DNA of 56,627 nt from an uncultured Gammaproteobacteria bacterium (GTDB lineage: Bacteria > Patescibacteriota > Patescibacteriia > UBA1558 > GWA2-36-10): the NCBI GenBank assembly GCA_964394835.1, contig CAYMZA010000002.1, positions 1 to 56,627 on the forward strand. The letters run 5' to 3'. Below, one piece after another: positions 5,083 through 44,603 of the stretch (positions are counted from its first letter, which is position 1; every line of letters starts with the position of its first letter). The notes under the pieces are model-generated. The model was not told the origin of the DNA. It searched no databases and worked only from the letters and a program-made list of their open reading frames with translations. A program made the position numbers and the translations under genes.

Positions 5083-5511
5083 TTACTTTATAATACTAAA
5101 AGTAGGTTTTTTCTTACTAATTGTAATATTAGGTTTATGTTTATACTTTGCTATTAAAGGTTTAAACTTTTTTTCTTTGCTTAACTGTTTAATTAAACTG
5201 GGCAATATCTCTTCAAAGGGTTTAGTATAGTATAGTTTACTAATAACAGGGATATTAAAATTCCAAGCAATAGTATTAATTATACCTATTATAACCTTAA
5301 CTTGAACCAAACTAGTTTCTTTAACTCCCAAGATAATACCCTTAACATCTTTTAGTTTAATCTTACTATGTTTTAAAAAAGTATCTAATTCCAATAATAT
5401 AGTATCTTTATCTCTAGGCATCACAAAACTATAGTCTTTAACTATACTACCCTCCTCTACTAAATACCAAGTACCATTATTACGATCTAAAATGTTTAAG
5501 ATTATATTCAT
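5083..5511 (-). CDS. Hypothetical protein, weakly TsaB/YeaZ-like (degenerate)
   Basis: 142 aa. Segment KDVKGIILGVKETSLVQVKVIIGIINTIAWNFNIPVISK resembles the TsaB pattern (DLDaIaVg.GPGSFTGlRIG..aKgLA.a..iPl.gVS) but lacks the GPGSFTG motif. Confidence 0.3.
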   Translation of the reverse strand: MNIILNILDRNNGTWYLVEEGSIVKDYSFVMPRDKDTILLELDTFLKHSKIKLKDVKGIILGVKETSLVQVKVIIGIINTIAWNFNIPVISKLYYTKPFEEILPSLIKQLSKEKKFKPLIAKYKHKPNITISKKKPTFSIIK

Positions 5512-6088
5512 TTAATTGTTTCTTTTTAACTTCTGCTGATATCTTATCAACTACAACTATATTTTCATTAGACCAAATATCATATATAAACTTATCTGTA
5601 ATTTCTAAACGATACAAATAGTCTGCTTTAGACAAAAAAGTATACCTTAATTCATCTGCAAAACCTTCAGCTATACTATTTAAATACTTATCAAATTCCT
5701 TTCTATTAACCTTACCTACTATTAGAACATCAGTATCAGAAGGAGAATTAGTCAAAACACCCGTAAACATTAAAAGCTTTAAACCAGATATCTTAGACAT
5801 CTTTTCTGCTATTTGCATTTCTTCTAAGGCTATAGCTTTAAAAACTAAATTATATATTTCCTTGAACAAAGAGAATCCATTATTAACAAAATAATATTTT
5901 TTACCTTCCTTTTCTTCTGTGTTTAATAATCCAAACTTTTCTAAATTAGTAAGTTCTCTTCTTAAAGAATTGATTTGTAACCCTAGTCTTCTTGTTAATT
6001 GACGAATAAAAAACTTATCACGAGAATTAATACAAAAAAACTTTAATATTTTTATTCTAGCTGTAGAACTAAAAAGATACTCAAGCAT
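5480..6088 (-). CDS. Winged-helix (ArsR/MarR-like) DNA-binding protein with uncharacterised C-terminal domain
   Basis: N-terminal ARIKILKFF...FIRQLTRRLGLQINSLRRELTNLEKFGLL is a typical wHTH pattern. Confidence 0.55.
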   Translation of the reverse strand: MLEYLFSSTARIKILKFFCINSRDKFFIRQLTRRLGLQINSLRRELTNLEKFGLLNTEEKEGKKYYFVNNGFSLFKEIYNLVFKAIALEEMQIAEKMSKISGLKLLMFTGVLTNSPSDTDVLIVGKVNRKEFDKYLNSIAEGFADELRYTFLSKADYLYRLEITDKFIYDIWSNENIVVVDKISAEVKKKQLNEYNLKHFRS

Positions 6089-6149
6089 ATTAATATATAT
6101 TTACTAAAGATATTAAATATAGTATAATATTAAATAGAAGAAATGTAAA

Positions 6150-8219
6150 ATGCCAAATCTTAAAAATTACAAATTATTTATACACGATCATATTAACTCT
6201 AGAGAACTATCAGAAGTTTATTTAAGTGAAGAAAATAAACATGGTAAGTTATTTATTACACTAGAATCTTCTAAAACTAAGGTGGATCAGCAAGAAGCAA
6301 TTAATGAAATTATTAATCAAGTCTCTGTTATTTTCGATACTTCTCATGAAAAAGATTCTGAAATGCTATTAGAAGAGATATTAAAGAAAATTAATGACCT
6401 ATTACCAGAATTAAGCTCGGAACTTAAAATAAGGAGTTGGATTAATAAACTAGATATAGCGATTGGTATAATATCAGAAAATAATGTATACATGTCAGCT
6501 ATTGGTAATATTAATACACTGCTAATACATAATAATAAATACAAGTCTATACTAACAACTGAAGCTGAAATAAACCCTACTAAACCCTTCACAGATATTA
6601 CAAGTGGTCAATTAGATAAAGGAGATGCTTTAATTATTTCTACTAATTCTCTTTTTGACTATATTTCTAAAGAAAAAATAAAACAAATAATTACTAAATA
6701 TCCTCCTAGAACTAGTATCTTAGAAATGCAAAAACTTTTAGAATCTGTTCCTGACTTTGTAACATTTAATTCTTTAGTTATGAAAAATACGCAAGCTAAA
6801 GATATAGCTACAGATGAAGAAAATATAGAATCAGATAGTCTAAAAACTAATATTATACCTAAAGAATATACACAAGAAAAAAGAAAATCCAAATTAGTTT
6901 TAGACCTTAAAGCTGTAAATAATATAGGATTTATACAAAAGATAAGTAAGATTATTTCTTTATTTATATATTTCTTTCAAATTATATCTAAAATATTTAT
7001 ATATATATTTAATAAAATAAAGGTAATTATACTATTTCTATTCTCTAATAAATATAGGAATAACCAAGAAGAGAGAACATTACATCAAATTAAAGACAAA
7101 ATAAACGATAAATATACTTGGTATTATAAACTAAATAAAAAACAAAAAGTAACATTAGTATCATTATTCATAATAATACTAGTATTTTTAACTAATTTAG
7201 TATTTTTAACACAAGAAAAAGCTGTAAAAGAAACTAATAAAGAATATGCTAATGCATTATTATTAATAAATGAGAAATTAACAGAAGCAGAAGCTAAATT
7301 AATATACAGTGATGAACAAGCTTCTGAGTTAATACTTCTAGAAATACAAGATATAATTAATAATTTAAATATAACATCTCAAGAAAATCAAGAGGAAATA
7401 GATGAAATAGCATTAACAGTTAAACATAAATTAAATAAAGTAAGACATATTTATGAAGTAACTGATCCTACAGAATTATTTGATTTAAGTACTACTATTT
7501 TATCTAGCAAACAAATAGTACAAAAAGAAGGTATATTCTATATATTAGGAGATGAAAAACTATATAAACTAAAAGAAGATAGTTTAGAACATTTAATTGA
7601 TTTTCCAGGAGGAACATTATTAACAGACTGGCCTAAGAAAAATAAACTTATACTAGGTAATGAAGAACAATATTTTATTATAAACCTAGATAATAATGAA
7701 TTAGAAGCCTTTGACTTTACTAAAAGTGCTGGTAATACCTCTATACAAGATTTGAATATGTATAGTAATAACCTATATGTTTTAGATAAAGCTAATAATC
7801 AAATATTTAAATACCCTGAATACTATGATCTATTTGCTAATGGGTCTGCTTGGATTTCTGATGAAATAACCTTAGACAACTTTAATAGTTTTACTATAGA
7901 CGGTAATATATACATTATAGATAATGAAGGTAAAATAAATAAATTTAGTAAAGGTTCTTTAGAGATATTTAATTATCATGAATTAAGACCTAATATAGGA
8001 CCTAATAGTATTATAAAAACATTTAAAGATTCTGATTACTTATATATCATAGATCCAAGTAATCAAAGAATAGTTATTTTAAATAAAGATGGTAATATAG
8101 AAGATCAATATACTTCTGATAAGTTTGATAACCTTATAGACTTAGCTATAGACCCTGAAGAAAAAGCTATTTATCTACTAAATGGTAATAATCTTTATTT
8201 ACTAGCTATAAATGAATAA
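6150..8219 (+). CDS. Uncharacterised 689-aa membrane protein (degenerate PP2C-like N-domain, 2 TM, coiled coil, beta-propeller-like C-domain)
   Basis: Long intact ORF with hydrophobic helices near aa 265-295 and 335-355. C-terminal repeats such as LYVLDKANNQIFKY and LYIIDPSNQRIVILNKDG resemble NHL/propeller blades. Confidence 0.5.
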   Translation: MPNLKNYKLFIHDHINSRELSEVYLSEENKHGKLFITLESSKTKVDQQEAINEIINQVSVIFDTSHEKDSEMLLEEILKKINDLLPELSSELKIRSWINKLDIAIGIISENNVYMSAIGNINTLLIHNNKYKSILTTEAEINPTKPFTDITSGQLDKGDALIISTNSLFDYISKEKIKQIITKYPPRTSILEMQKLLESVPDFVTFNSLVMKNTQAKDIATDEENIESDSLKTNIIPKEYTQEKRKSKLVLDLKAVNNIGFIQKISKIISLFIYFFQIISKIFIYIFNKIKVIILFLFSNKYRNNQEERTLHQIKDKINDKYTWYYKLNKKQKVTLVSLFIIILVFLTNLVFLTQEKAVKETNKEYANALLLINEKLTEAEAKLIYSDEQASELILLEIQDIINNLNITSQENQEEIDEIALTVKHKLNKVRHIYEVTDPTELFDLSTTILSSKQIVQKEGIFYILGDEKLYKLKEDSLEHLIDFPGGTLLTDWPKKNKLILGNEEQYFIINLDNNELEAFDFTKSAGNTSIQDLNMYSNNLYVLDKANNQIFKYPEYYDLFANGSAWISDEITLDNFNSFTIDGNIYIIDNEGKINKFSKGSLEIFNYHELRPNIGPNSIIKTFKDSDYLYIIDPSNQRIVILNKDGNIEDQYTSDKFDNLIDLAIDPEEKAIYLLNGNNLYLLAINE

Positions 8220-8729: not shown

Positions 8730-9251
8730 TTATTCTTTTTTATCTTTTATTGCACTTAATACTCCCACAAAATTACAAGTAGTACCACTTAATACTCCAA
8801 CCAGACCTGTTAAAGGAGAATTTATAGACCCTACTAACTTTGCTAATAATTCTTCTTTAGAAGGTAATGAAGCTAATTTTTTAATAACTTCAGGTAATAT
8901 ATATTCTCCTTCTAGAATACCACCACCTATTTCTAAACCTTCATTATCTTTAGCAAACTTACTTACTACTTTAACACCCTCTATTTCATCTTCATATGAG
9001 CAAGTAACGCCTAATGAACCTTGTAAATCTTTAATAGAATCTTCTTTAGCCAACTTATCATCAGCTAATTTTAACAATGTTTTTTTAGTAACAAAGTATT
9101 CTGATCCTTTTTCTCTTAACTCTTTTCTTAATTTTTCTACTGTTTTTACATCTAAGCCTGTATCACCACTAAAAACAATAGATTTACTTTTACCTAATTT
9201 ATCTTTAATTGATTTTAAGATATCTTTTTTTTGTTCTTTAGTTTTTGACAT
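8730..9251 (-). CDS. rplJ: 50S ribosomal protein L10
   Basis: L10-like sequence directly upstream of rplL. Confidence 0.9.
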   Translation of the reverse strand: MSKTKEQKKDILKSIKDKLGKSKSIVFSGDTGLDVKTVEKLRKELREKGSEYFVTKKTLLKLADDKLAKEDSIKDLQGSLGVTCSYEDEIEGVKVVSKFAKDNEGLEIGGGILEGEYILPEVIKKLASLPSKEELLAKLVGSINSPLTGLVGVLSGTTCNFVGVLSAIKDKKE

Positions 9252-9370
9252 AATTATATATTAAAAAATCTGCGCAGTTTATCGCAGACAAGAATATATT
9301 ATCTCGGTAGGATTTACTTTAGCTAATATTAGCTAAAACCCACTGTCTTTGATAAACATTATTTAATTAT
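9252..9370 (-). promoter_or_regulatory. rplJ 5' leader (L10-leader-like) with terminator-like hairpin
   Basis: Leader of about 120 nt downstream of the candidate promoter. Hairpin TCTGCG-N8-CGCAGA (9288-9269) is followed by U6 (9268-9263), 11 nt before the ATG. Confidence 0.45.
9318..9337. repeat. Perfect 20-bp palindrome TTTAGCTAATATTAGCTAAA, copy 1
   Basis: Exact self-complementary 20-mer inside the rplJ leader; 66 nt separate it from the rplJ ATG. Confidence 0.95.
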
Positions 9371-9376
9371 GTAAAG

Positions 9377-9405
9377 AGTATATACTATTTTAACTATTTT
9401 GTCAA
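9377..9405 (-). promoter_or_regulatory. Candidate sigma70-type promoter of rplJ-rplL
   Basis: Minus strand TTGACA (9405-9400), 17-nt spacer, TATACT (9382-9377). Confidence 0.55.
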
Positions 9406-12036: not shown

Positions 12037-13614
12037 TTAAATTAAAGAACTACTTGTCATTTCAGGTGGTTTTTTTAACCCCATTATTTTTAATATAGTT
12101 GGAGTAACGTCTGATAATACTCCAACAGGTGTAATACTACTTAAATCTTTACCAGACACTCCTGTTAAAACACTTTTACCTGTAAACTGCTGCCCTATTA
12201 TAAATAAAGGAACGGGATTATTAGTATGTTCTTTATCTATTATACCAGTTTGTAAATCATACAGTTTTTCAGCATTACCATGATCAGCAGTAATTAAAAC
12301 AACTCCATCATAAGACAATGTTGTATCAACTAATTCTCCTACTAATTGATCTAATATTTCTATAGCTTCAATAGTAGCTTTTATATTACCCGTATGACCA
12401 ACCATATCTGGATTAGCGTAGTTTATAACTATAAAATCATATAAACCCTCTTTAATAAATTGCATTGTCTTAGAAGTGATTTCACGAGCTGACATAGCTG
12501 GTTTTTGATCAAAAGAAGGAATACTAGGAGATGGTACTAATATTCTATCTTCTCCCTCAAAAATAGTTTCCTTACCTCCATTAAAAAAATAAGTAACATG
12601 TGCATACTTATTAGTTTCAGCAATATGTAATTGTTTTAAACCTGCATCAGATATTACCTTAGCTAAAGGTACATCTATTGACAATGGTTTAAATGCTACT
12701 ATAGCTGGTAAATCTTTTTCATACTCTGTCATAATAACCATTAGTAGGTTTTTATAGTAACTCTGTTCAAACTTTTCAAAACCAGGAACTATTAATGACT
12801 TAGTTAATTGTCTAGCTCTATCTGATCTAAAATTAAAGAAAATGACAGCATCATTGTCTTGTATAGTGCCTTTAGGATTATCATTTTCATCTGTTATAAC
12901 AATAGGCATAAATTGTTCATCATACACTGAATTATCATATGAATTTTGTATAGCTTGTAAAGGATTAGAAGATTTTTCTTTAGATTGACCATTAACTATA
13001 GCATTATATGCTAAAGAGGTTCTATCCCAATTATGATCTCTATCCATAGCATAGAAACGACCTGCTAAACTAGCTATACTACCTATACCAATTTCCTTTA
13101 TTTTGTCTTGTAATTTATTAATATATTCTAAAGCTCCATTATATATTGTATCTCTACCATCTAAAAAAGCATGAATATATACTTTTTCTATATTTTCTTT
13201 TTTAGCTAATTCTAAAATAGCATACAAATGTTCATTATAACTATGAATACCACCATCACTAACTAAACCCATAATATGTAAAGCACTATTTTTTTCTTTT
13301 GCATGATCACATGCTTTTAATAATCCTTCATTCTTAAAAAAATCTTTACTAATAATATCTTTAGTAATTCTAGGTAAGTATTGATATGGTATTAATCCAG
13401 ATCCTAAAGAAAGGTGTCCTACTTGAGAATTACCCATTTCTCCCCAAGGTAAACCAACTGCTTCACCACTAGCTGATAATGGCATAATTGGATAATTAGA
13501 AGCATACTTATCAAAATTAGGTGTTTTAGCTAAAGAAATAGCATTAGCTCTAGAAGAAGGAGCAATACCAAACCCATCTAATATTATTAATACAACTGGT
13601 TTAGGTCTATTCAT
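12037..13614 (-). CDS. gpmI: 2,3-bisphosphoglycerate-independent phosphoglycerate mutase, copy A
   Basis: LDGFG, GNSQVGH (catalytic Ser), SDGGIHS, DGRD, GRFYAMDRD, FNFRSDRARQ, KYAHVTYFFNGG, NPDMVGHTG and TADHGN motifs are all present. Confidence 0.9.
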   Translation of the reverse strand: MNRPKPVVLIILDGFGIAPSSRANAISLAKTPNFDKYASNYPIMPLSASGEAVGLPWGEMGNSQVGHLSLGSGLIPYQYLPRITKDIISKDFFKNEGLLKACDHAKEKNSALHIMGLVSDGGIHSYNEHLYAILELAKKENIEKVYIHAFLDGRDTIYNGALEYINKLQDKIKEIGIGSIASLAGRFYAMDRDHNWDRTSLAYNAIVNGQSKEKSSNPLQAIQNSYDNSVYDEQFMPIVITDENDNPKGTIQDNDAVIFFNFRSDRARQLTKSLIVPGFEKFEQSYYKNLLMVIMTEYEKDLPAIVAFKPLSIDVPLAKVISDAGLKQLHIAETNKYAHVTYFFNGGKETIFEGEDRILVPSPSIPSFDQKPAMSAREITSKTMQFIKEGLYDFIVINYANPDMVGHTGNIKATIEAIEILDQLVGELVDTTLSYDGVVLITADHGNAEKLYDLQTGIIDKEHTNNPVPLFIIGQQFTGKSVLTGVSGKDLSSITPVGVLSDVTPTILKIMGLKKPPEMTSSSLI

Positions 13615-15174
13615 TTATTTTTTAATTAAAGATTTTCCTGTCATTGATTTAGGCTTTTTTATATTTAAAATATCTAATATAGTTGGTGCTATATCAGCTA
13701 ATTTACCTATTTTCTCTAATTTATATTTATGCTTGTTGATTATAACAAAAGGAACTAAATTAGTAGAGTGTTTGGTTATAATTTCATTTGTTTCATTATC
13801 TATCATTTCTTCAACATTACCGTGGTCAGATGTTATTATAACAGTACCATTTTTCTTAAATACTGCTGATACAATTTTACCAACTTCTTTATCTACAATC
13901 TCAATAGCTTTAATAGCTGCTTCAATATTACCAGTATGACCAATCATATCCGGACTAGCATAGTTTAGGGTTATAAAATCAAATTTTTTATCTTTTATAG
14001 CTTTAACTACATTGCTAGTAACAAGTTTAACACTCATGCCTGGTTTTTGATCATATGTACTAATATCTTTAGAAGGAACAGATATTCTTTTTTCTTTTAC
14101 AACTGGATTATCATAGCCTCCATTGAAAAAATAAGTTACATGAGCATACTTTTCTGTTTCTGCAATATATAATTGCCTATACTCATTTAAAGCTGTTGTT
14201 AATGAGTTTGGTATGTCTATAGCTGGATAAGCTGTTAAAATATGATCTAATCCTGCACCAAAGTCTGTTAAAGCAGTAAAGAATAAATTTTTAACTTTTT
14301 TATTTCTTTTAAAAGAATTTTCATTCTCTTTTTCAAAGTTTTGCTGTGCAAATGTTTTACTCAGTTGTCTGGCTCTATCTGATCTTAAATTAAAAAATAC
14401 TATAGCATCATTATCATTTATTGGACCAATAGGTTTTTTATCTTTACCAACTATAACTGAAGGTAATATAAACTCATCACTCTCTCCCCTGTTATATGCT
14501 TGATTAACAGCTTCAATGCTATTAGGAACTGATACACCACTACCTTCTGTAATAGACTCATATGCTAATTTAGTTATTTTCCAATCTCTCTTCCTATCCA
14601 TAGCATAGAAACGACCTATAATAGTAGCTATTTTAACTCTTTTACTATTAAATACATCTTTATATTTATCTAAAATTTTTAAAGCAGAAAATATATGACT
14701 ATCACGACCATCTGTAAATAAATGAAGATAAATATTTTGTTTAGTATGTTCAGTAAAAAAATCAATCAAAGCTAATATATGATCATTATCTGAATGAGGG
14801 CTTTGATCTTCTGATAATAATCCCATTAAATGAATGTCTGATTTATTATCATTAACATGTTGAGCTGTTTGTAAAAAAGCAGGATTCTTAAAAAAAGTAC
14901 CATTCTTAATACTCTTATTTATTATAATAGAATCTTGAGGTATTATTCTACCTGCTCCAATATTCATATGACCAGCCTCTGAATTACCCGGTTGTCCGTC
15001 TGGTAAACCAACATAGTGTCCTGAAGCATGTAAGTGAGCATGAGAATACTCTTTGCATAATTTATCTATATTAGGTGTCTTAGCCAAAGCTATAGCATTG
15101 CCCCTTATTTCTTTACTAACACCCCAACCATCTAAAATAATTAAAACTAATGGTAAAATATTATTATTCTTCAT
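13615..15174 (-). CDS. 2,3-bisphosphoglycerate-independent phosphoglycerate mutase paralog, copy B (divergent)
   Basis: Same family motifs (LDGWG, GNSEAGH, DGRD, GRFYAMDRK, FNLRSDRARQ, KYAHVTYFFNGG, SPDMIGHTG, TSDHGN), but SDGG(V/I)HS is replaced by SEDQSPHS. Confidence 0.8.
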   Translation of the reverse strand: MKNNNILPLVLIILDGWGVSKEIRGNAIALAKTPNIDKLCKEYSHAHLHASGHYVGLPDGQPGNSEAGHMNIGAGRIIPQDSIIINKSIKNGTFFKNPAFLQTAQHVNDNKSDIHLMGLLSEDQSPHSDNDHILALIDFFTEHTKQNIYLHLFTDGRDSHIFSALKILDKYKDVFNSKRVKIATIIGRFYAMDRKRDWKITKLAYESITEGSGVSVPNSIEAVNQAYNRGESDEFILPSVIVGKDKKPIGPINDNDAIVFFNLRSDRARQLSKTFAQQNFEKENENSFKRNKKVKNLFFTALTDFGAGLDHILTAYPAIDIPNSLTTALNEYRQLYIAETEKYAHVTYFFNGGYDNPVVKEKRISVPSKDISTYDQKPGMSVKLVTSNVVKAIKDKKFDFITLNYASPDMIGHTGNIEAAIKAIEIVDKEVGKIVSAVFKKNGTVIITSDHGNVEEMIDNETNEIITKHSTNLVPFVIINKHKYKLEKIGKLADIAPTILDILNIKKPKSMTGKSLIKK

Positions 15175-17606: not shown

Positions 17607-17984
17607 TTATTTCTTTTTTGGTGTTGGTATAAATACTGATTTAACATTAGATAACTCTACTAAAGGACATAAACTATCTTTAGGAATATCAGATTTAACA
17701 TAATCAAATAGCCAAGTACCATTATTTAAATTAATACCTAAATTATCTAAAGTTAATTTAATATTATCTTCTAATGGAAGCTTTTTAAAGCTAATAAAAG
17801 CAGATATTGTTTCTATATCTCTATCTAGTTCTAAGATTGAGGAAGATATTTTATTAACCTCACACTCTAATGTTGTACTTAAAGTTTGAGTAAAACTAGC
17901 ACCCTTTTTATTCATTAAGAATATAATACCAATTATTACACAAAAAATGATAATAAAAAAGAGAAAGAAATGTAATATTTTCAT
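17607..17984 (-). CDS. Hypothetical membrane-anchored protein, first gene of the pgk-eno-gpmI operon
   Basis: 125 aa, N-terminal TM helix, 3-nt gap to pgk; no family recognised. Confidence 0.5.
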   Translation of the reverse strand: MKILHFFLFFIIIFCVIIGIIFLMNKKGASFTQTLSTTLECEVNKISSSILELDRDIETISAFISFKKLPLEDNIKLTLDNLGINLNNGTWLFDYVKSDIPKDSLCPLVELSNVKSVFIPTPKKK

Positions 17985-18012: not shown

Positions 18013-18074
18013 CCTTTGAATAAGGAAATAAAGGGGTTGTTGTTTAAAATATACATGAAAATATATACAAAATC

Positions 18075-18094
18075 TTTAGCTAATATTAGCTAAA
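18075..18094. repeat. Perfect 20-bp palindrome TTTAGCTAATATTAGCTAAA, copy 2 (24-bp palindrome with flanks, 18073-18096)
   Basis: Exact self-complementary sequence between the divergent glycolytic-operon promoter and the RNA promoter. Confidence 0.95.
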
Positions 18095-18104
18095 GATATG
18101 CTAC

Positions 18105-18133
18105 TTGACAAGATTATATATATGTGCTAATAT
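18105..18133 (+). promoter_or_regulatory. Near-consensus sigma70 promoter driving the orphan RNA
   Basis: TTGACA (18105-18110), 17-nt spacer, TGcTAATAT (18125-18133). Confidence 0.6.
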
Positions 18134-18139
18134 AATATA

Positions 18140-18407
18140 TTGAACATTACAGGATACTTTGACTATGAGGATTCCGGAAAAGTAAGGGACAGTCGTAGTG
18201 CTGCGATTTCTAAGTTATTTTTTGCTATCAAGAGTGGCCCGTGCCCCGAAGATAGCTATCCTGGCCCCGGAGAAATAAATGGGTACTAAGATAACCTTAC
18301 TTTCCTCACCGTCAAACCAAAAAAGCAGATAACATCTGCCTAGTACCACTCACCAGTTGCCATAAATGCAACAAAGCTTAACAAAGACTGGTGGGTGGTC
18401 TTTTTTT
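18140..18407 (+). ncRNA. Unclassified structured small RNA candidate (about 270 nt)
   Basis: ORF-free gap. G+C is about 45% over 18161-18320 by my hand count, against AT-rich flanks. A 20-bp interrupted helix pairs 18158-18187 with 18295-18316. A terminal 13-bp hairpin (18347-18359 / 18388-18400) is followed by U7. The G.U pairs would be C.A mismatches on the other strand. Confidence 0.55.
18319..18339 (-). terminator. Intrinsic terminator of the histidine kinase transcript
   Basis: Minus strand GCAGAT-GTT-ATCTGC followed by TTTTTT; lies inside the 3' part of the plus-strand RNA candidate. Confidence 0.6.
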
Positions 18408-28453: not shown

Positions 28454-28662
28454 AACTCTTTTTCCTTTCTAACCCGTATTTTACATATTGTCTTAAAGCT
28501 ATATATAGCCAGGAAAAGACATATGATTAGTAAAATACTTGATTTCTTACTTAATTAAAAACAAGAATACTCTAACATAATATTTAATTTTAATCAAGTA
28601 GTATATATTACTATTGACTAATTATACTTTTTTTGCTATTGTTTCAGAGTAAAAAAATAATT

Positions 28663-39819: not shown

Positions 39820-39975
39820 GTTTTTAGTGATTGGAATAGCTACCAACTATTCTCTGTAAAGATTTCTTTAGAAACTAAACTAAGAACAATAAAAGAAGAG
39901 ATTATGAATATTCATAATAACTTGGGTGGAACCGCCCTTCAAGGGTCCCAGGACTAAGCTGTCTTGGGCTATTTT
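39820..39975 (+). promoter_or_regulatory. T-box riboswitch leader, threonine specifier (ACC)
   Basis: T-box sequence AACTTGGGTGGAACCGCCC (39919-39937). Candidate specifier ACC followed by A at 39842-39845 in a GAATAG/CTATTC-closed loop. Terminator CCCAGGAC-N6-GTCTTGGG (39947-39968) plus a U-rich tail, directly before thrS. Confidence 0.8.
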
Positions 39976-39987
39976 AATTAAAAATAT

Positions 39988-41739
39988 ATGAAAAAAGAAA
40001 AAATTAACATTTCTAGACATTCCTTAGCACATATTTTAGCTATAGCTGTCATAAAAAAGTACCCTGATACTAAATTAGGTATTGGTCCTGTAGTAGAGAA
40101 TGGATTCTACTATGACTTTCTTTTACCAGATAAAATTACAGATTCTGATTTACCTAAATTAGAAAAACAAATGAAAAAAATCATACAACAAAGTATAGAT
40201 TTTAAAAAAGAAGTTGTAGATAAAGAAAAAGCTTTAGATAAATTTAAAGATAACAAATTTAAAATAGAATTAATTAATGAATTACCAGAGGATGAAGATA
40301 TTTCTTTCTACAATTCAAGTAAGTTTACAGACCTATGTGCAGGACCCCATGTTAAAAATACCAAAGAAATAAATATTAATGCTTTTAAATTAACTACTAT
40401 AGCAGGAGCATACTGGAAAGGTAATCAAGAAAATAAAATGCTAACTAGAATATATGGTGTAGCATTTGAAACTAAAGAAGAATTAGATCAATACTTAGAA
40501 ATGCTAGAAGAAGCTAAAAAAAGAGATCATCGTAAACTAGGAAAAGAACTAGACCTATTTACTTTTTCAGAACTAGTAGGATCTGGTTTACCAATGTGGT
40601 CACCTAAAGGAACTATACTTCGTGATGAAATAGATAACTTTGTTTGGGAATTAAGAAAAGAATATGACTACAAAAAAGTAACAATACCACATATTACTAA
40701 AAAAGCTTTGTATGAAAAAAGTGGGCATTGGGAAAAATTCTCTGAAGAACTATTTAGAATAAAAACAAGAGAAGGTACTGAATATGCTCTTAAACCAATG
40801 AATTGTCCTCATCATACACAAATATATGATCATTTACCTAGAAGCTATAGAGATTTACCTCAAAGATATGCAGAAACTTCAATGGTATATAGAGACGAAC
40901 AAAGCGGTGAATTAATAGGACTATCAAGAGTATTAAGTATTACTCAAGATGATGCTCATGTATTTTGTAGAGAAAAACAAATGAAAGAAGAAGTTCTAAA
41001 AATAGTAGATATTGTACAAAACTTTTACAAACCATTTAACTTTGACTTAGAAATATTCCTCTCACTTCATGACAAGGATAATATGGATAAATACTTAGGA
41101 GAAGAAAAAGTATGGAAAAAAACAGAACAAGATTTAAAAGATCTATTAAAAGAAAGGAAAATTAAATTCACAGAAGCTATTGGTGAAGCAGCTATGTACG
41201 GACCTAAGATAGACTTTATGGCTAAAGATTCTCTAAATCGTAAATGGCAAGTAGCTACAATACAATTAGATAGACAAATGCCAGAAAGATTTAAACTTAC
41301 TTGTACTAATGAAAAAGGAGAAGACGAACAAGTAGTTATGATACATGCAGCTATAGCCGGTGCATTAGAAAGATTCATAGCTATATTAATAGAACATTTA
41401 GGTGGTAATTTCCCTACATGGCTGTCCCCTGTTCAAATTAAGATATTAACTGTAGGAGAAAAACATATTGAGTTTAGTAATAAATTAAAAGAAGAATTTG
41501 AAGAATATAATCTAAGAGTAGAATTAGATGATTCTTCAGAAACTTTAGGTAATAAGATAAGGAAGGGAGTTAAAGAAAGAATTCCATATACTTTAGTAAT
41601 TGGTGACAAAGAAATGAATTCTAATGATTTATCTATTCGTGTAAGAGGAAAAAAGGATATTCTAAGTATTAAAAAAGATAAATTTATCACTCAAGTTAAA
41701 GAAGGGGTTAAAAAAAGAAAATTAAATTTAATTAAATGA
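39988..41739 (+). CDS. thrS: Threonine--tRNA ligase (lacks N-terminal TGS domain)
   Basis: Starts at the editing/SAD domain (RHSLAHILA), followed by the class II core and anticodon-binding domain; 583 aa. Confidence 0.95.
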   Translation: MKKEKINISRHSLAHILAIAVIKKYPDTKLGIGPVVENGFYYDFLLPDKITDSDLPKLEKQMKKIIQQSIDFKKEVVDKEKALDKFKDNKFKIELINELPEDEDISFYNSSKFTDLCAGPHVKNTKEININAFKLTTIAGAYWKGNQENKMLTRIYGVAFETKEELDQYLEMLEEAKKRDHRKLGKELDLFTFSELVGSGLPMWSPKGTILRDEIDNFVWELRKEYDYKKVTIPHITKKALYEKSGHWEKFSEELFRIKTREGTEYALKPMNCPHHTQIYDHLPRSYRDLPQRYAETSMVYRDEQSGELIGLSRVLSITQDDAHVFCREKQMKEEVLKIVDIVQNFYKPFNFDLEIFLSLHDKDNMDKYLGEEKVWKKTEQDLKDLLKERKIKFTEAIGEAAMYGPKIDFMAKDSLNRKWQVATIQLDRQMPERFKLTCTNEKGEDEQVVMIHAAIAGALERFIAILIEHLGGNFPTWLSPVQIKILTVGEKHIEFSNKLKEEFEEYNLRVELDDSSETLGNKIRKGVKERIPYTLVIGDKEMNSNDLSIRVRGKKDILSIKKDKFITQVKEGVKKRKLNLIK

Positions 41740-43165: not shown

Positions 43166-43174
43166 TGATATAAT
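43166..43174 (+). promoter_or_regulatory. Extended -10 element TGATATAAT downstream of guaB
   Basis: Exact TGATATAAT. If used, palindrome copy 3 lies in the 5' UTR of the 43293 gene. Confidence 0.4.
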
Positions 43175-43202: not shown

Positions 43203-43222
43203 TTTAGCTAATATTAGCTAAA
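43203..43222. repeat. Perfect 20-bp palindrome TTTAGCTAATATTAGCTAAA, copy 3
   Basis: Exact. The 25-mer TTACTTTAGCTAATATTAGCTAAAA is shared with copy 1. 70 nt separate it from the ATG at 43293. Confidence 0.95.
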
Positions 43223-43292
43223 AATACGTGTAATAATATAGTATAATATCCGTCATACTATATGCTTGTCATAATAATAATTAAAAAAATAT

Positions 43293-44603
43293 ATGAAAAA
43301 ACTATTATTACTTTTTTTTATAGCATTATTAACATTTAATATAGCTATAAAACAAGCTAATGCTCAAACAAATACATTAGAACTACAATCAATGTCTGCT
43401 GAATTTGAAGCTGATAATATAACAGCTGAATCATTGAGCATAGAAGAACCTACTAAATTACCTGGTGATAAAGGATATTGGTGGACTAATTTCAAAAGAA
43501 ACACAAATATGTTCTTTACTTTTAACAAAGCAAAGAAAGCAGAAAAAGAATTAAAAATAGCTAATACTAAACTATTAGAAGCTAAAAAAATAGCTGAAAA
43601 AAAAGATAACTTAAAGAATGAACAATATTTAGAAGAAACATTAGAAAAATATAAAAAAAGAATAGCAAATGTAACAGATAGAGTTAAAAGTATTCCAGAA
43701 GAGAATAAAGAAAAATTTAAAAATGTTTTAAACAATATTGATAGAGACTATTTAAAACAACAACAAATATTAAGAACAATAGAACATAAACTTCCTGTGT
43801 CTAAGAAAGAATGGATAGAAAGAATACGTAAAGATTCTACAAATAAATGGTATGAAGCTAACAAAGAAAGTGTAAAAGAAAGATTAGAAACAGCTATTGA
43901 ACAAAATAATACCGGAAGTAATTTTAAACAATTACGTAATATAGCTACTTTAGAAGAAATAGAAGAAATATTACCAATAGAAGCAACTATTGAAGTCAAG
44001 GAAGCAAGAATAAGGGCTGAAGAAAAATTAAAAAGTAAACTAGATAATATTAATGACGAAGAAAAAATAAAAATAAATAAATATATTGATAATATTAAAT
44101 TAAAAGATGTTAGAAAACTTGAATTAATGAATCGTTTAGAAGATTCTGAAGAAATGCCGACTATTATAAAAAATAGAATCGTTGAAATTAAAAAAACACA
44201 TTTAGAAAATATAGGAGCAAACTTTAATGCAATGTCTAAAGAAAGAAAAGAAAAATGGTTAAGCACATTTGAAAAGTATGGATCTATCTCTAGAATCAAA
44301 ACATTAGAAAATCTTAAGTATTCTCCAGAATATAAAGAAAGAATACAATCACTCATAAAAAGCCAGGAAATATTAATAAAAGAAAATATTAGAAAAATTC
44401 CTTGGAAAAACATCAAAGAATTAGAAAAAATGGAAATAAGATTAAACGGAAAATCTACATTAACAAATGAAATAAGAGCAGCTAAGATAAGGATTACACC
44501 CAAACCACAACCAAGTTTAAGAAGACAAGGAACATTAGAACCAATAGATCCCACTCCTCCACCACATCAACCAAGTTTAAGAAGACAAGGAACATTAGAA
44601 TAA
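43293..44603 (+). CDS. Secreted K/E-rich coiled-coil protein (DUF5667-like?) with duplicated C-terminal module
   Basis: Signal peptide MKKLLLLFFIALLTFNIAIKQANA; LPGDKGYWW...FFTFNK segment recalled from DUF5667 proteins; C-terminal QPSLRRQGTLE occurs twice. Confidence 0.45.
   Translation: MKKLLLLFFIALLTFNIAIKQANAQTNTLELQSMSAEFEADNITAESLSIEEPTKLPGDKGYWWTNFKRNTNMFFTFNKAKKAEKELKIANTKLLEAKKIAEKKDNLKNEQYLEETLEKYKKRIANVTDRVKSIPEENKEKFKNVLNNIDRDYLKQQQILRTIEHKLPVSKKEWIERIRKDSTNKWYEANKESVKERLETAIEQNNTGSNFKQLRNIATLEEIEEILPIEATIEVKEARIRAEEKLKSKLDNINDEEKIKINKYIDNIKLKDVRKLELMNRLEDSEEMPTIIKNRIVEIKKTHLENIGANFNAMSKERKEKWLSTFEKYGSISRIKTLENLKYSPEYKERIQSLIKSQEILIKENIRKIPWKNIKELEKMEIRLNGKSTLTNEIRAAKIRITPKPQPSLRRQGTLEPIDPTPPPHQPSLRRQGTLE
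44508..44600 (+). repeat. Exact 33-bp direct repeat (44508-44540 and 44568-44600) at the 3' end of the CDS
   Basis: CAACCAAGTTTAAGAAGACAAGGAACATTAGAA occurs twice, separated by a 27-bp Pro-rich linker. Confidence 0.95.

Follow-up and report, generated by a model that had tools for sequence, protein, structure and literature searches.

A 20-bp perfect palindrome, TTTAGCTAATATTAGCTAAA, occurs three times in a 56.6-kb stretch of DNA (contig CAYMZA010000002.1, 56,627 nucleotides, analyzed as a whole and called the window below): in the leader of rplJ, the gene for ribosomal protein L10 (copy 1), upstream of the pgk-eno operon (copy 2), and between guaB and the gene for a secreted DUF5667 protein (copy 3). 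The element recurs at orthologous sites, and distant lineages of the Patescibacteria, or candidate phyla radiation (CPR), carry it ahead of the same families of genes. We tentatively interpret it as a conserved cis-element of a subset of the Patescibacteria, serving as the DNA operator of a putative sequence-specific regulator that would bind as a dimer or as a dimer of dimers.

The palindrome and its three sites in the window

An exact scan placed the element at 9318-9337, 18075-18094 and 43203-43222, the three positions given in a preliminary description of this DNA. The claim made there that such a number cannot be chance in 56 kb is borne out, since shuffled versions of the window contained 0.08 matches on average and none of 100 reached three. 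Allowing up to three mismatches added nothing to the exact copies, and a scan extended to seven mismatches found no variant with one to four mismatches in the whole window. All 18-mers present at least three times in the window derive from this element, whereas other palindromes of at least 14 bp occur at chance level (14 observed vs 10.8 expected). Together with the lack of any match in viral contigs (see below), the shuffles exclude chance or composition as the origin of the element. No further copy was found in an additional 10 kb of the source contig.

A 21-mer (C plus the 20-mer) is common to the three copies. Copies 1 and 3 have a 25-mer in common, i.e. five flanking bases beyond the 20-mer, as had been described, while the 24-bp palindrome reported for copy 2 in fact extends over 26 bp (18072-18097). 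A looser relative proposed for the rpsB leader (28497-28510) shares only the GCTA/TAGC arms and, with nine of 20 positions mismatched in register, resembles a chance similarity. The element is built from two 8-bp palindromes, TTAGCTAA, spaced by one helical turn (10 bp), and its dyad symmetry has the right size for a dimeric helix-turn-helix or ribbon-helix-helix protein. As RNA, it would form a hairpin of -6.5 kcal/mol, stronger than 200 of 200 shuffles, with a core stem that contains just two G-C pairs. Its reading frames (TTT AGC TAA, TTA GCT AAT ATT AGC TAA and TAG) all contain a stop codon and, because the element is a palindrome, the same stops appear on the opposite strand. With stops in all six frames, a purely intergenic location is automatic; the earlier remark that no full copy lies inside a gene is therefore true and uninformative.

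The source of the window is a Patescibacterium. Its DNA contains 27% G+C and long open reading frames (ORFs) under genetic code 11, and it matches part of a 70-kb contig of JGI metagenome 3300009008 at 99.6% identity and a contig of a metagenome-assembled genome, L094 (L-numbers denote the loci fetched for comparison), at 89%. It shows synteny at 67-71% identity with genomes of Patescibacteria, Komeilibacteria and Parcubacteria, and the homologues of its L10 protein carry the names Parcubacteria, Patescibacteria or Komeilibacteria. The gene order orf-pgk-eno-gpmI-gpmI ... mltG-rplJ-rplL ... mraZ is kept in relatives.

The features of the region around copy 1 are:

8730-9251, minus strand: rplJ (ribosomal protein L10; NF000955, 147.5 bits)
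9254-9370, minus strand: L10 leader (RF00557), including a terminator-like hairpin, GUCUGCG...CGCAGAUUUUUU, directly before rplJ
9318-9337: palindrome copy 1, an exact match within the RF00557 alignment, forming the apex (helix and loop) of the hairpin in the rplJ leader
9377-9405, minus strand: rplJ promoter predicted by a consensus scan, with TTGACA (9405-9400), a 17-nt spacer and TATACT (9382-9377)

The palindrome lies 66 nt from the rplJ start codon (ATG at 9251) and at about +33 to +52 of the transcript expected from the predicted promoter. The window leader scores 30.8 bits against RF00557 (E=0.0016), which is below the gathering score of 44; six orthologous leaders (L049, L158, L097, L160, L159 and L036) exceed the gathering score with 44.7-54 bits. 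Like other L10 leaders, it is located directly upstream of rplJ on the same strand and carries the hairpin base GACAG.GGG ... CCUACCGAG and a 3′ terminator hairpin with a U-run; its fold has a z-score of -3.6, and the outer helix is 100% paired across eight leaders. Copy 1 occupies the apex of the main hairpin between GACAGUGGGU and AAAUCCUACCGAG, with the predicted fold GUGGGU[UUUAGCUA-AUAU-UAGCUAAA]G...CCUAC. In RF00557 this apex is a variable insert of the P1 hairpin, whereas here it is a fixed 20-mer that is also found outside L10 leaders. The context of copy 1 is hence a known family, while the element itself falls outside the definition of that family.

Conservation of the apex differs between lineages. 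Among the eight leaders, 93.7% of the cells of the apical helix are paired, with both sides changing in four of the eight pairs and with G-U intermediates; the variants read TTTGGCCAAAATTGGCCAAA in L158, TTTGGCTAAAATTGGCCAAA in L160 and TTTAGCTAgTATTAGCTAAg in L097. The rplJ leaders of L098 and L159 have unrelated hairpins at the apex. As RNA, the apex thus requires no more than a helix. In four rplJ lineages (window/L094, L036, L049 and L022), however, the 20-mer is unchanged (0 of 20 differences) at an L10 identity of only 40-65%, whereas L097 and L158 differ at seven of the 20 positions despite 74% L10 identity. In a sister clade (L097, L158, L160, L159 and L098) the apex drifts, with compensatory changes, and L022 keeps the palindrome although the surrounding L10-binding consensus is unrecognizable. 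Since no position changed at deep L10 divergence and seven changed in a closer pair, base pairing alone is insufficient, and the comparison implies a sequence-specific reader in some lineages. L094, L036 and L049 also share the promoter geometry of the window, with the -10 box 39-41 nt away from the 20-mer, or 40-42 nt if measured to the 18-mer core. Altogether, the palindrome is present in the rplJ leader of five lineages: the window, L094, L036/L134, L049 and L022/L151.

Copy 3 is located in a spacer with the following features:

43166-43174, plus strand: extended -10 promoter-like sequence TGaTATAAT, 12 nt after the guaB stop codon
43203-43222: palindrome copy 3, an exact match in the guaB/DUF5667 spacer at 48 nt from the guaB stop codon
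43229-43256, plus strand: promoter-like site of the extracytoplasmic function (ECF) sigma type, TGTAAT-N16-CGTCAT, beginning 6 nt downstream of copy 3
43293-44603, plus strand: gene of the secreted DUF5667 protein (PF18915, E=8.9e-11)

The palindrome lies 70 nt from the start of the ORF at 43293 and would fall at about +23 to +42 of a transcript initiated at the TGaTATAAT site. L115/L121 (73% nucleotide identity) show the same order of guaB, palindrome, secreted protein and miaB, and in their orthologous spacer the 20-mer is intact while both flanks, including that of the 25-mer, have diverged. A sequence similar to the putative ECF-type promoter, TGTAAT-N16/17-CGTCTA, precedes the ECF sigma genes of the Komeilibacteria loci L020/L102, L033 and L079 and is also present in L115. 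The three Komeilibacteria loci carry the palindrome upstream of the ECF sigma gene as well, which in L033 and L102 is followed by a DUF5667 gene. Because these distant loci and the window share all three parts, the association of palindrome, putative ECF-type promoter and DUF5667 is old. Written as TGTAAT-N16/17-CGTC(T/A)TA, the promoter-like motif is found upstream of CPR ECF sigma and DUF5667 genes (window 43229-43256; L020, L033, L079, L102 and L115). It is probably the promoter type of the ECF sigma factor itself, which would place the DUF5667 proteins in its regulon.

The region of copy 2 comprises:

17607-17984, minus strand: 125-aa ORF (ATG at 17984) heading the pgk-eno-gpmI operon
18072-18097: palindrome copy 2, a 26-bp perfect palindrome ATC...GAT (20-mer at 18075-18094)
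18105-18133, plus strand: strong sigma-70-type promoter TTGACA-17-TGcTAATAT with a near-consensus extended -10 region
18140-18315, plus strand: unclassified structured RNA of ~175 nt behind the promoter at 18105, a long irregular hairpin

Here, the 20-mer ends 10 nt before the -35 box of the RNA promoter (TTGACA at 18105-18110), with its center at about -55 relative to the start site, and lies 90 nt from the start codon of the 125-aa ORF; this gap and the start-codon distances at all three copies agree with the preliminary description. A promoter-like site of the ORF, TTCAAA-16-TATAAT (18020-17993), would put copy 2 at about -98. The -10 box of this site ends just 8 nt before the ATG, and the mRNA may be leaderless. 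As RNA, copy 2 would form a hairpin of -12 kcal/mol. Its minus strand contains TTGTCA-17-TAATAT and was flagged as terminator-like (26-nt hairpin followed by UUUUGUAUAUA); the upstream kinase gene already owns a terminator at 18341-18323. In L097 and L159 the orf122/141-pgk-eno synteny is retained without palindrome or orphan RNA upstream. Copy 2 is lineage-specific, and the proposed link to the glycolytic operon is not conserved.

The orphan RNA has a fold energy of -55 kcal/mol with a z-score of -2.15. It matches no Rfam family at E<=1, and none of the fetched loci contains a homologue. A 6S-like RNA that has diverged or a small RNA specific to the lineage are possible identities. The pgk-eno operon holds two tandem paralogues of cofactor-independent phosphoglycerate mutase (12037-15174, minus strand; 525 and 519 aa), a duplication kept in every relative examined. 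The three genes downstream of the palindromes show no recognizable Shine-Dalgarno sequence (upstream of 9252, 17985 and 43292). The gene at 39988-41739 is preceded by a 205-nt gap that contains a second perfect palindrome, ATTATGAATATTCATAAT (18 bp, 39901-39918), a possible operator of another regulator.

Distribution in Patescibacteria and other phyla

The 18-mer core was searched in 185,579 species genomes and the 20-mer in a metagenome collection that does not include the window's own contig. We obtained 96 genome and 54 metagenome matches; a set of 2.9 million viral contigs contained none. CPR-like loci account for about 46 of the 96 genome matches and for most metagenome matches, and no genome in the collection scan has more than three exact copies. 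By our own arithmetic, roughly 10-30 of the 96 matches could be chance in AT-rich genomes, and we therefore place weight only on recurrent contexts.

Several such contexts emerged in addition to rplJ. The commonest CPR neighbor of the palindrome is a gene of ~370 aa encoding Sigma70_r4 and HARE-HTH domains, which carries it in at least 10 loci; these represent five to six lineages, some with genomes of 52-54% GC. In six lineages the distance from the -10 box of a clear promoter to the 20-mer is 29-31 nt; this distance is constant, whereas that to the start codon varies. When leaders of this family were sampled by protein similarity alone, L157 and L156 showed versions with two and four mismatches, respectively, at the same position. 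Further recurrent contexts are the ECF-sigma/DUF5667 operon, infA (three loci), an inositol-monophosphatase gene and tuf, where two lineages, one of them the sister genome of the window, have an identical 35-nt spacing to the -35 box. Upstream of clusters of tRNA-Arg and tRNA-Ala genes, the palindrome is joined by extra tandem or partial copies in a 10-bp register (L016, L095 and L017), and copies are also found between co-oriented tRNA genes. The genes rpoB, nusG, adk, HU and ssb are single cases. Recurrence at the same gene families spans CPR lineages with 30-45% protein identity. CPR loci also contain 19 non-ascertained copies with one to four mismatches, compared with about 1.4 expected, most of which lose pairing.

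Relative to promoters, the position of the element is variable. Copy 2 and the copies in L007, L130, L030, L058, L064 and L054 lie upstream of the nearest -35 box, and those in L064 and L054 are found just past a canonical terminator and just before a promoter. A gap of 9-16 nt to the -35 box occurs at 12 of 73 sites, which, with short intergenic regions, is not clearly above expectation. As helical phasing is also missing, we rejected a fixed activator-like position near -55. Convergent gene contexts make up at most three of 59 sites after two miscalled cases were discounted, a weak test.

Some CPR copies lie in special surroundings. In several loci (L052, L041, L050, L073 and L149) the palindrome provides the stop codon of the upstream gene, and in L052 (6639-6656) it fills the entire 21-nt gap between two operon genes. 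In L001/L110, L025, L111 (e.g. 900-1010) and L125 it occurs within DnaA-box-like clusters (AGTCCAC-N6-GTGGACT, GTGGATAAG), which may be replication-origin regions. On the 1.1-kb contig of L111 the palindrome is 850 nt from a canonical parS. A role as parS in place of the canonical TGTTNCACGTGAAACA was rejected, because the parS variant TGTTCCACGTGGAACA sits with the palindrome on that same contig.

Outside the CPR, 21 loci have the 18-mer TTAGCTAATATTAGCTAA ahead of a PhdYeFM_antitox-PIN gene pair, at 0-40 nt upstream of the antitoxin gene. The hosts belong to the Proteobacteria, Campylobacterota, Bacteroidota and others. Loci noted for this toxin-antitoxin family are:

L008, L015, L018, L023, L024, L026, L038, L047, L048, L059-L061, L075, L077, L083, L085, L087, L089, L091, L093, L112, L131 and L148: Phd/YefM-PIN loci with the 18-mer

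The center of the 18-mer, TAATAT, coincides with a -10 box, and a perfect TTGACA lies 17 nt upstream in eight of the 21 loci. This is a classical operator arrangement and shows the 18-mer at work as a protein-binding DNA site. Operator and antitoxin form an unusually invariant pair, with the 18 bp unchanged in host genomes of 27% to 67% GC from several phyla. A further copy, on the plasmid-like contig L108, lies 14 nt upstream of a gene for a ParA-type ATPase (5427-6461) followed by an 86-aa gene whose product looks ribbon-helix-helix-like by eye and has no Pfam match. This copy may be a partition-operon operator or a centromere.

The sites in the window and in CPR loci resemble the Phd/YefM-PIN operators in the identical 18-mer and in the dyad of two 8-bp palindromes, an arrangement that would suit two bound dimers. 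They differ in that the element does not overlap the core promoter, and neither the window nor the CPR loci contain an antitoxin or toxin homologue; on these two grounds a toxin-antitoxin operator in the window was ruled out. Other known systems were compared as well. Fis and CRP are global growth-related regulators with sites at the promoters of stable RNA and translation genes and of their own gene. Similar to such regulons, the CPR targets include tRNA clusters, tuf, infA, rplJ, rpoB and the gene of a candidate regulator itself, some promoters have several phased upstream sites, and sites occur both before the -35 box and beyond the start site. In contrast to Fis and CRP sites, the CPR motif is long, perfect, rarely degenerate and present in few copies per genome, and no Fis or CRP homologue is implicated. 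The CIRCE operator of HrcA, TTAGCACTC-N9-GAGTGCTAA, acts on DNA and also influences the mRNA as a hairpin. It shares with the element an inverted repeat that starts with TTAGC and ends with GCTAA, but arm sequence, spacing and length differ (27 bp for CIRCE vs 20 bp), and no chaperone gene lies beside the element in the window or the fetched loci. The SOS/LexA regulon of Patescibacteria was reportedly the subject of a 2017 study in Environ Microbiol; LexA is an unlikely reader because the gene set associated with the palindrome includes no SOS genes. Neither the 16-mer nor the 18-mer of the element had a match in the literature searched.

DNA operator, RNA hairpin and other explanations

The preliminary description offered an operator and an RNA hairpin as alternatives. 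Both remain viable and both would involve a sequence-specific reader; copy 1 is part of an RNA helix, while degenerate copies and those behind terminators favor DNA. We judge a DNA operator to be the most economical single explanation, and an RNA-binding factor to be a serious rival. Six observations speak for DNA: the sites upstream of a -35 box, some of them between a terminator and a promoter, the arrays phased by 10 bp, the variants that break pairing, the spacing in Sigma70_r4+HARE-HTH leaders, which is fixed relative to the promoter and variable relative to the start codon, the retention of an AT-rich sequence in GC-rich genomes, and the use of the identical 18-mer as a DNA operator in other phyla.

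As an operator, the element would mark a core of genes for expression, including the rplJ leader, tuf, infA, rpoB, nusG, tRNA clusters, the Sigma70_r4+HARE-HTH gene and the ECF-sigma/DUF5667 operon. At copy 1, the operator would be set into the leader apex, the part that tolerates any helix. A protein bound there would block elongation, and the RNA hairpin could still serve L10 autoregulation. At copy 3 it would act between the sigma-70-type -10 box and the ECF-type promoter of the DUF5667 gene, and at copy 2 from a position directly ahead of the small-RNA promoter's -35 box. A dual reading then comes naturally, in which the operator in the DNA occupies a spot that accepts or requires a hairpin in the RNA. 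What the analysis establishes is that the element is non-random, conserved at orthologous positions, repeated beside the same families of genes and constrained in sequence in some lineages; binding to DNA, the dimeric state and the direction of regulation are inferred, and we read neither activation nor repression from the geometry.

A number of points weigh against an operator. The window has perfect copies only and no graded series, which is unusual for a transcription-factor motif, and most CPR genomes with a match have just one to three exact copies. The best-conserved contexts (rplJ, Sigma70_r4+HARE-HTH and possibly copy 3) are transcribed leaders, and leader variants (L097, L156, L160 and L158) have changed mostly by wobble-compatible or compensatory substitutions, as an RNA helix predicts. 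Distances to promoters vary from site to site and show no helical phasing, and 14 of 44 co-directional sites abut the upstream stop codon (within 22 nt). Two of the four Sigma70_r4+HARE-HTH leaders sampled without bias (L154 and L155) lack the motif. Finally, no gene for the putative binder lies next to any of the three copies.

Several of these points lead to the rival view, which we consider somewhat unlikely, that the element acts as an RNA hairpin with a stem of 7-8 bp and an AUAU loop, read by a sequence-specific RNA-binding protein or nuclease. Located in 5′ leaders, intercistronic spacers and 3′ ends, it would affect attenuation, processing or stability of mRNAs for the expression machinery and of tRNA precursors. 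Copy 1 indeed forms an RNA helix in the L10 leader, and the compensatory and G-U changes in four of eight pairs of the apical helix, 93.7% of which is paired, are expected from such a function. L156 even keeps the hairpin by means of two G-U pairs despite its lost DNA symmetry. The constant position behind the -10 box in the Sigma70_r4+HARE-HTH leaders, perhaps paralleled by copy 3 at +23 to +42, the copies between co-oriented tRNA genes, the many copies directly after stop codons and a hairpin energy exceeding that of all 200 shuffles also fit. However, copy 2 and the copies in L007, L130, L030, L058 and L064 lie upstream of the nearest -35 box, some of them just past a terminator. Degenerate copies mostly break pairing, and the arrays phased by 10 bp cannot all fold. 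A purely structural RNA would also fail to explain the absence of any change among 20 positions at deep divergence and the persistence of an AT-rich sequence at 52-54% GC.

It is very unlikely, in our view, that only copy 1 is functional, as an L10 apex without a specific reader, and that the other copies are REP-like or hairpin-targeting duplicates without a role. The 25-mer common to copies 1 and 3 could be a trace of duplication. Copies that exactly fill a gap or supply a stop codon (L052, L041, L050, L073 and L149) and the varying presence at orthologous sites (window vs L041/L050/L149; L097 and L159 vs copy 2) would also agree with insertion. Like REP and BIME elements, the palindrome is short, intergenic and capable of forming a hairpin, with some copies directly after stop codons. 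Its copy number is orders of magnitude lower, though, and it is identical across phylum-level divergence, occupies orthologous 5′ sites and is rarely convergent. We rejected a selfish REP-like repeat because exact copies number at most three per genome in the collection scan, a further 10 kb of the contig added none, the window lacks near-copies, and no more than three of 59 sites are convergent. In addition, copy 3 is exact in L115 though its flanks have diverged, the same gene families are marked at 30-45% protein identity, 3′-3′ contexts are rare, and no transposase is adjacent.

We give hardly any credence to the idea that the element serves as a core signal of transcription, be it a -10 box used in both directions (TAATAT) or an intrinsic terminator or insulator. 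TAATAT does serve as -10 box in the toxin-antitoxin loci (eight of 21 with a perfect TTGACA) and the minus strand of copy 2 combines TTGTCA-17-TAATAT with a terminator-like flag. Among 74 CPR sites, however, a perfect -35 box is never seen at the correct distance, and just five sites match it at five of six positions; copies 1 and 3 lack a U-run behind a stem with only two G-C pairs, and canonical GC-rich terminators stand beside the palindrome in L064, L054, L073 and L152. A -10 box at CPR sites and an intrinsic terminator, flagged only on the minus strand of copy 2, were both rejected on this evidence.

Candidate readers and significance for the Patescibacteria

None of the three copies has a gene for a putative binder beside it. 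A 202-aa protein encoded at 5480-6088, proposed earlier as a winged-helix binder, has no support as the reader: it shows no significant family match, and its orthologue is equally present in L098 and L159, whose rplJ leaders lack the palindrome. Two other proteins are leads only. The first is the Sigma70_r4+HARE-HTH protein, whose gene often carries the element in its own leader; a regulator gene with a site in its own leader typically signals autoregulation. In the helix-turn-helix of this protein, however, the recognition helix is the canonical one of sigma-70 region 4.2 (TRERVRQIE), and this helix reads TTGACA-like sequences. The family also occurs in genomes whose leaders lack the motif. 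The second lead is a 99-aa HTH_17 protein; in four Komeilibacteria loci, its gene and the palindrome are divergently coupled.

The Sigma70_r4+HARE-HTH family (~370 aa, with the Sigma70_r4 domain at the N-terminus) is found throughout the Patescibacteria with more than 3000 matches, and its members could be sigma mimics or delta-like RNA polymerase factors. Downstream of the gene, five of five loci with listed genes (including L154-L156) have a DUF8128 gene and one for a TraG/VirD4-like coupling protein; secDF precedes it in the three loci L154, L155 and L157. Loci noted for this family are:

L029, L051, L106, L119, L126 (808-1929), L141, L143, L080 and L154-L157: Sigma70_r4+HARE-HTH genes

A much broader proposal, which we regard as unlikely at present, is a global regulatory code of the Patescibacteria in which a nearly invariant palindrome is read by a CPR-specific factor and couples expression genes to one signal. 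Such a code would join genes for ribosomal proteins, elongation and initiation factors, tRNAs and sigma-like proteins, and possibly DnaA-box regions close to the origin. Its reader might be the ubiquitous Sigma70_r4+HARE-HTH protein, with the element in its own leader.

CPR bacteria are tiny, uncultivated and symbiotic and have very few regulators, and to our knowledge almost nothing is known about their transcriptional control. The element is a conserved palindromic cis-regulatory motif with a putative reader in a group whose regulation is essentially undescribed. If an operator is indeed embedded in the rplJ apex, one stretch of 20 bases would be both an operator in the DNA and a helix in the RNA of the L10 riboregulator, an example of a cis-element placed in the free apex of a ribosomal-protein leader. 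The survey also documents a very widely conserved operator of the Phd/YefM-PIN toxin-antitoxin family. For the CPR, a frozen motif that marks the expression machinery offers a concrete entry point to regulation, and the sister clades that have lost the constraint provide a natural experiment.

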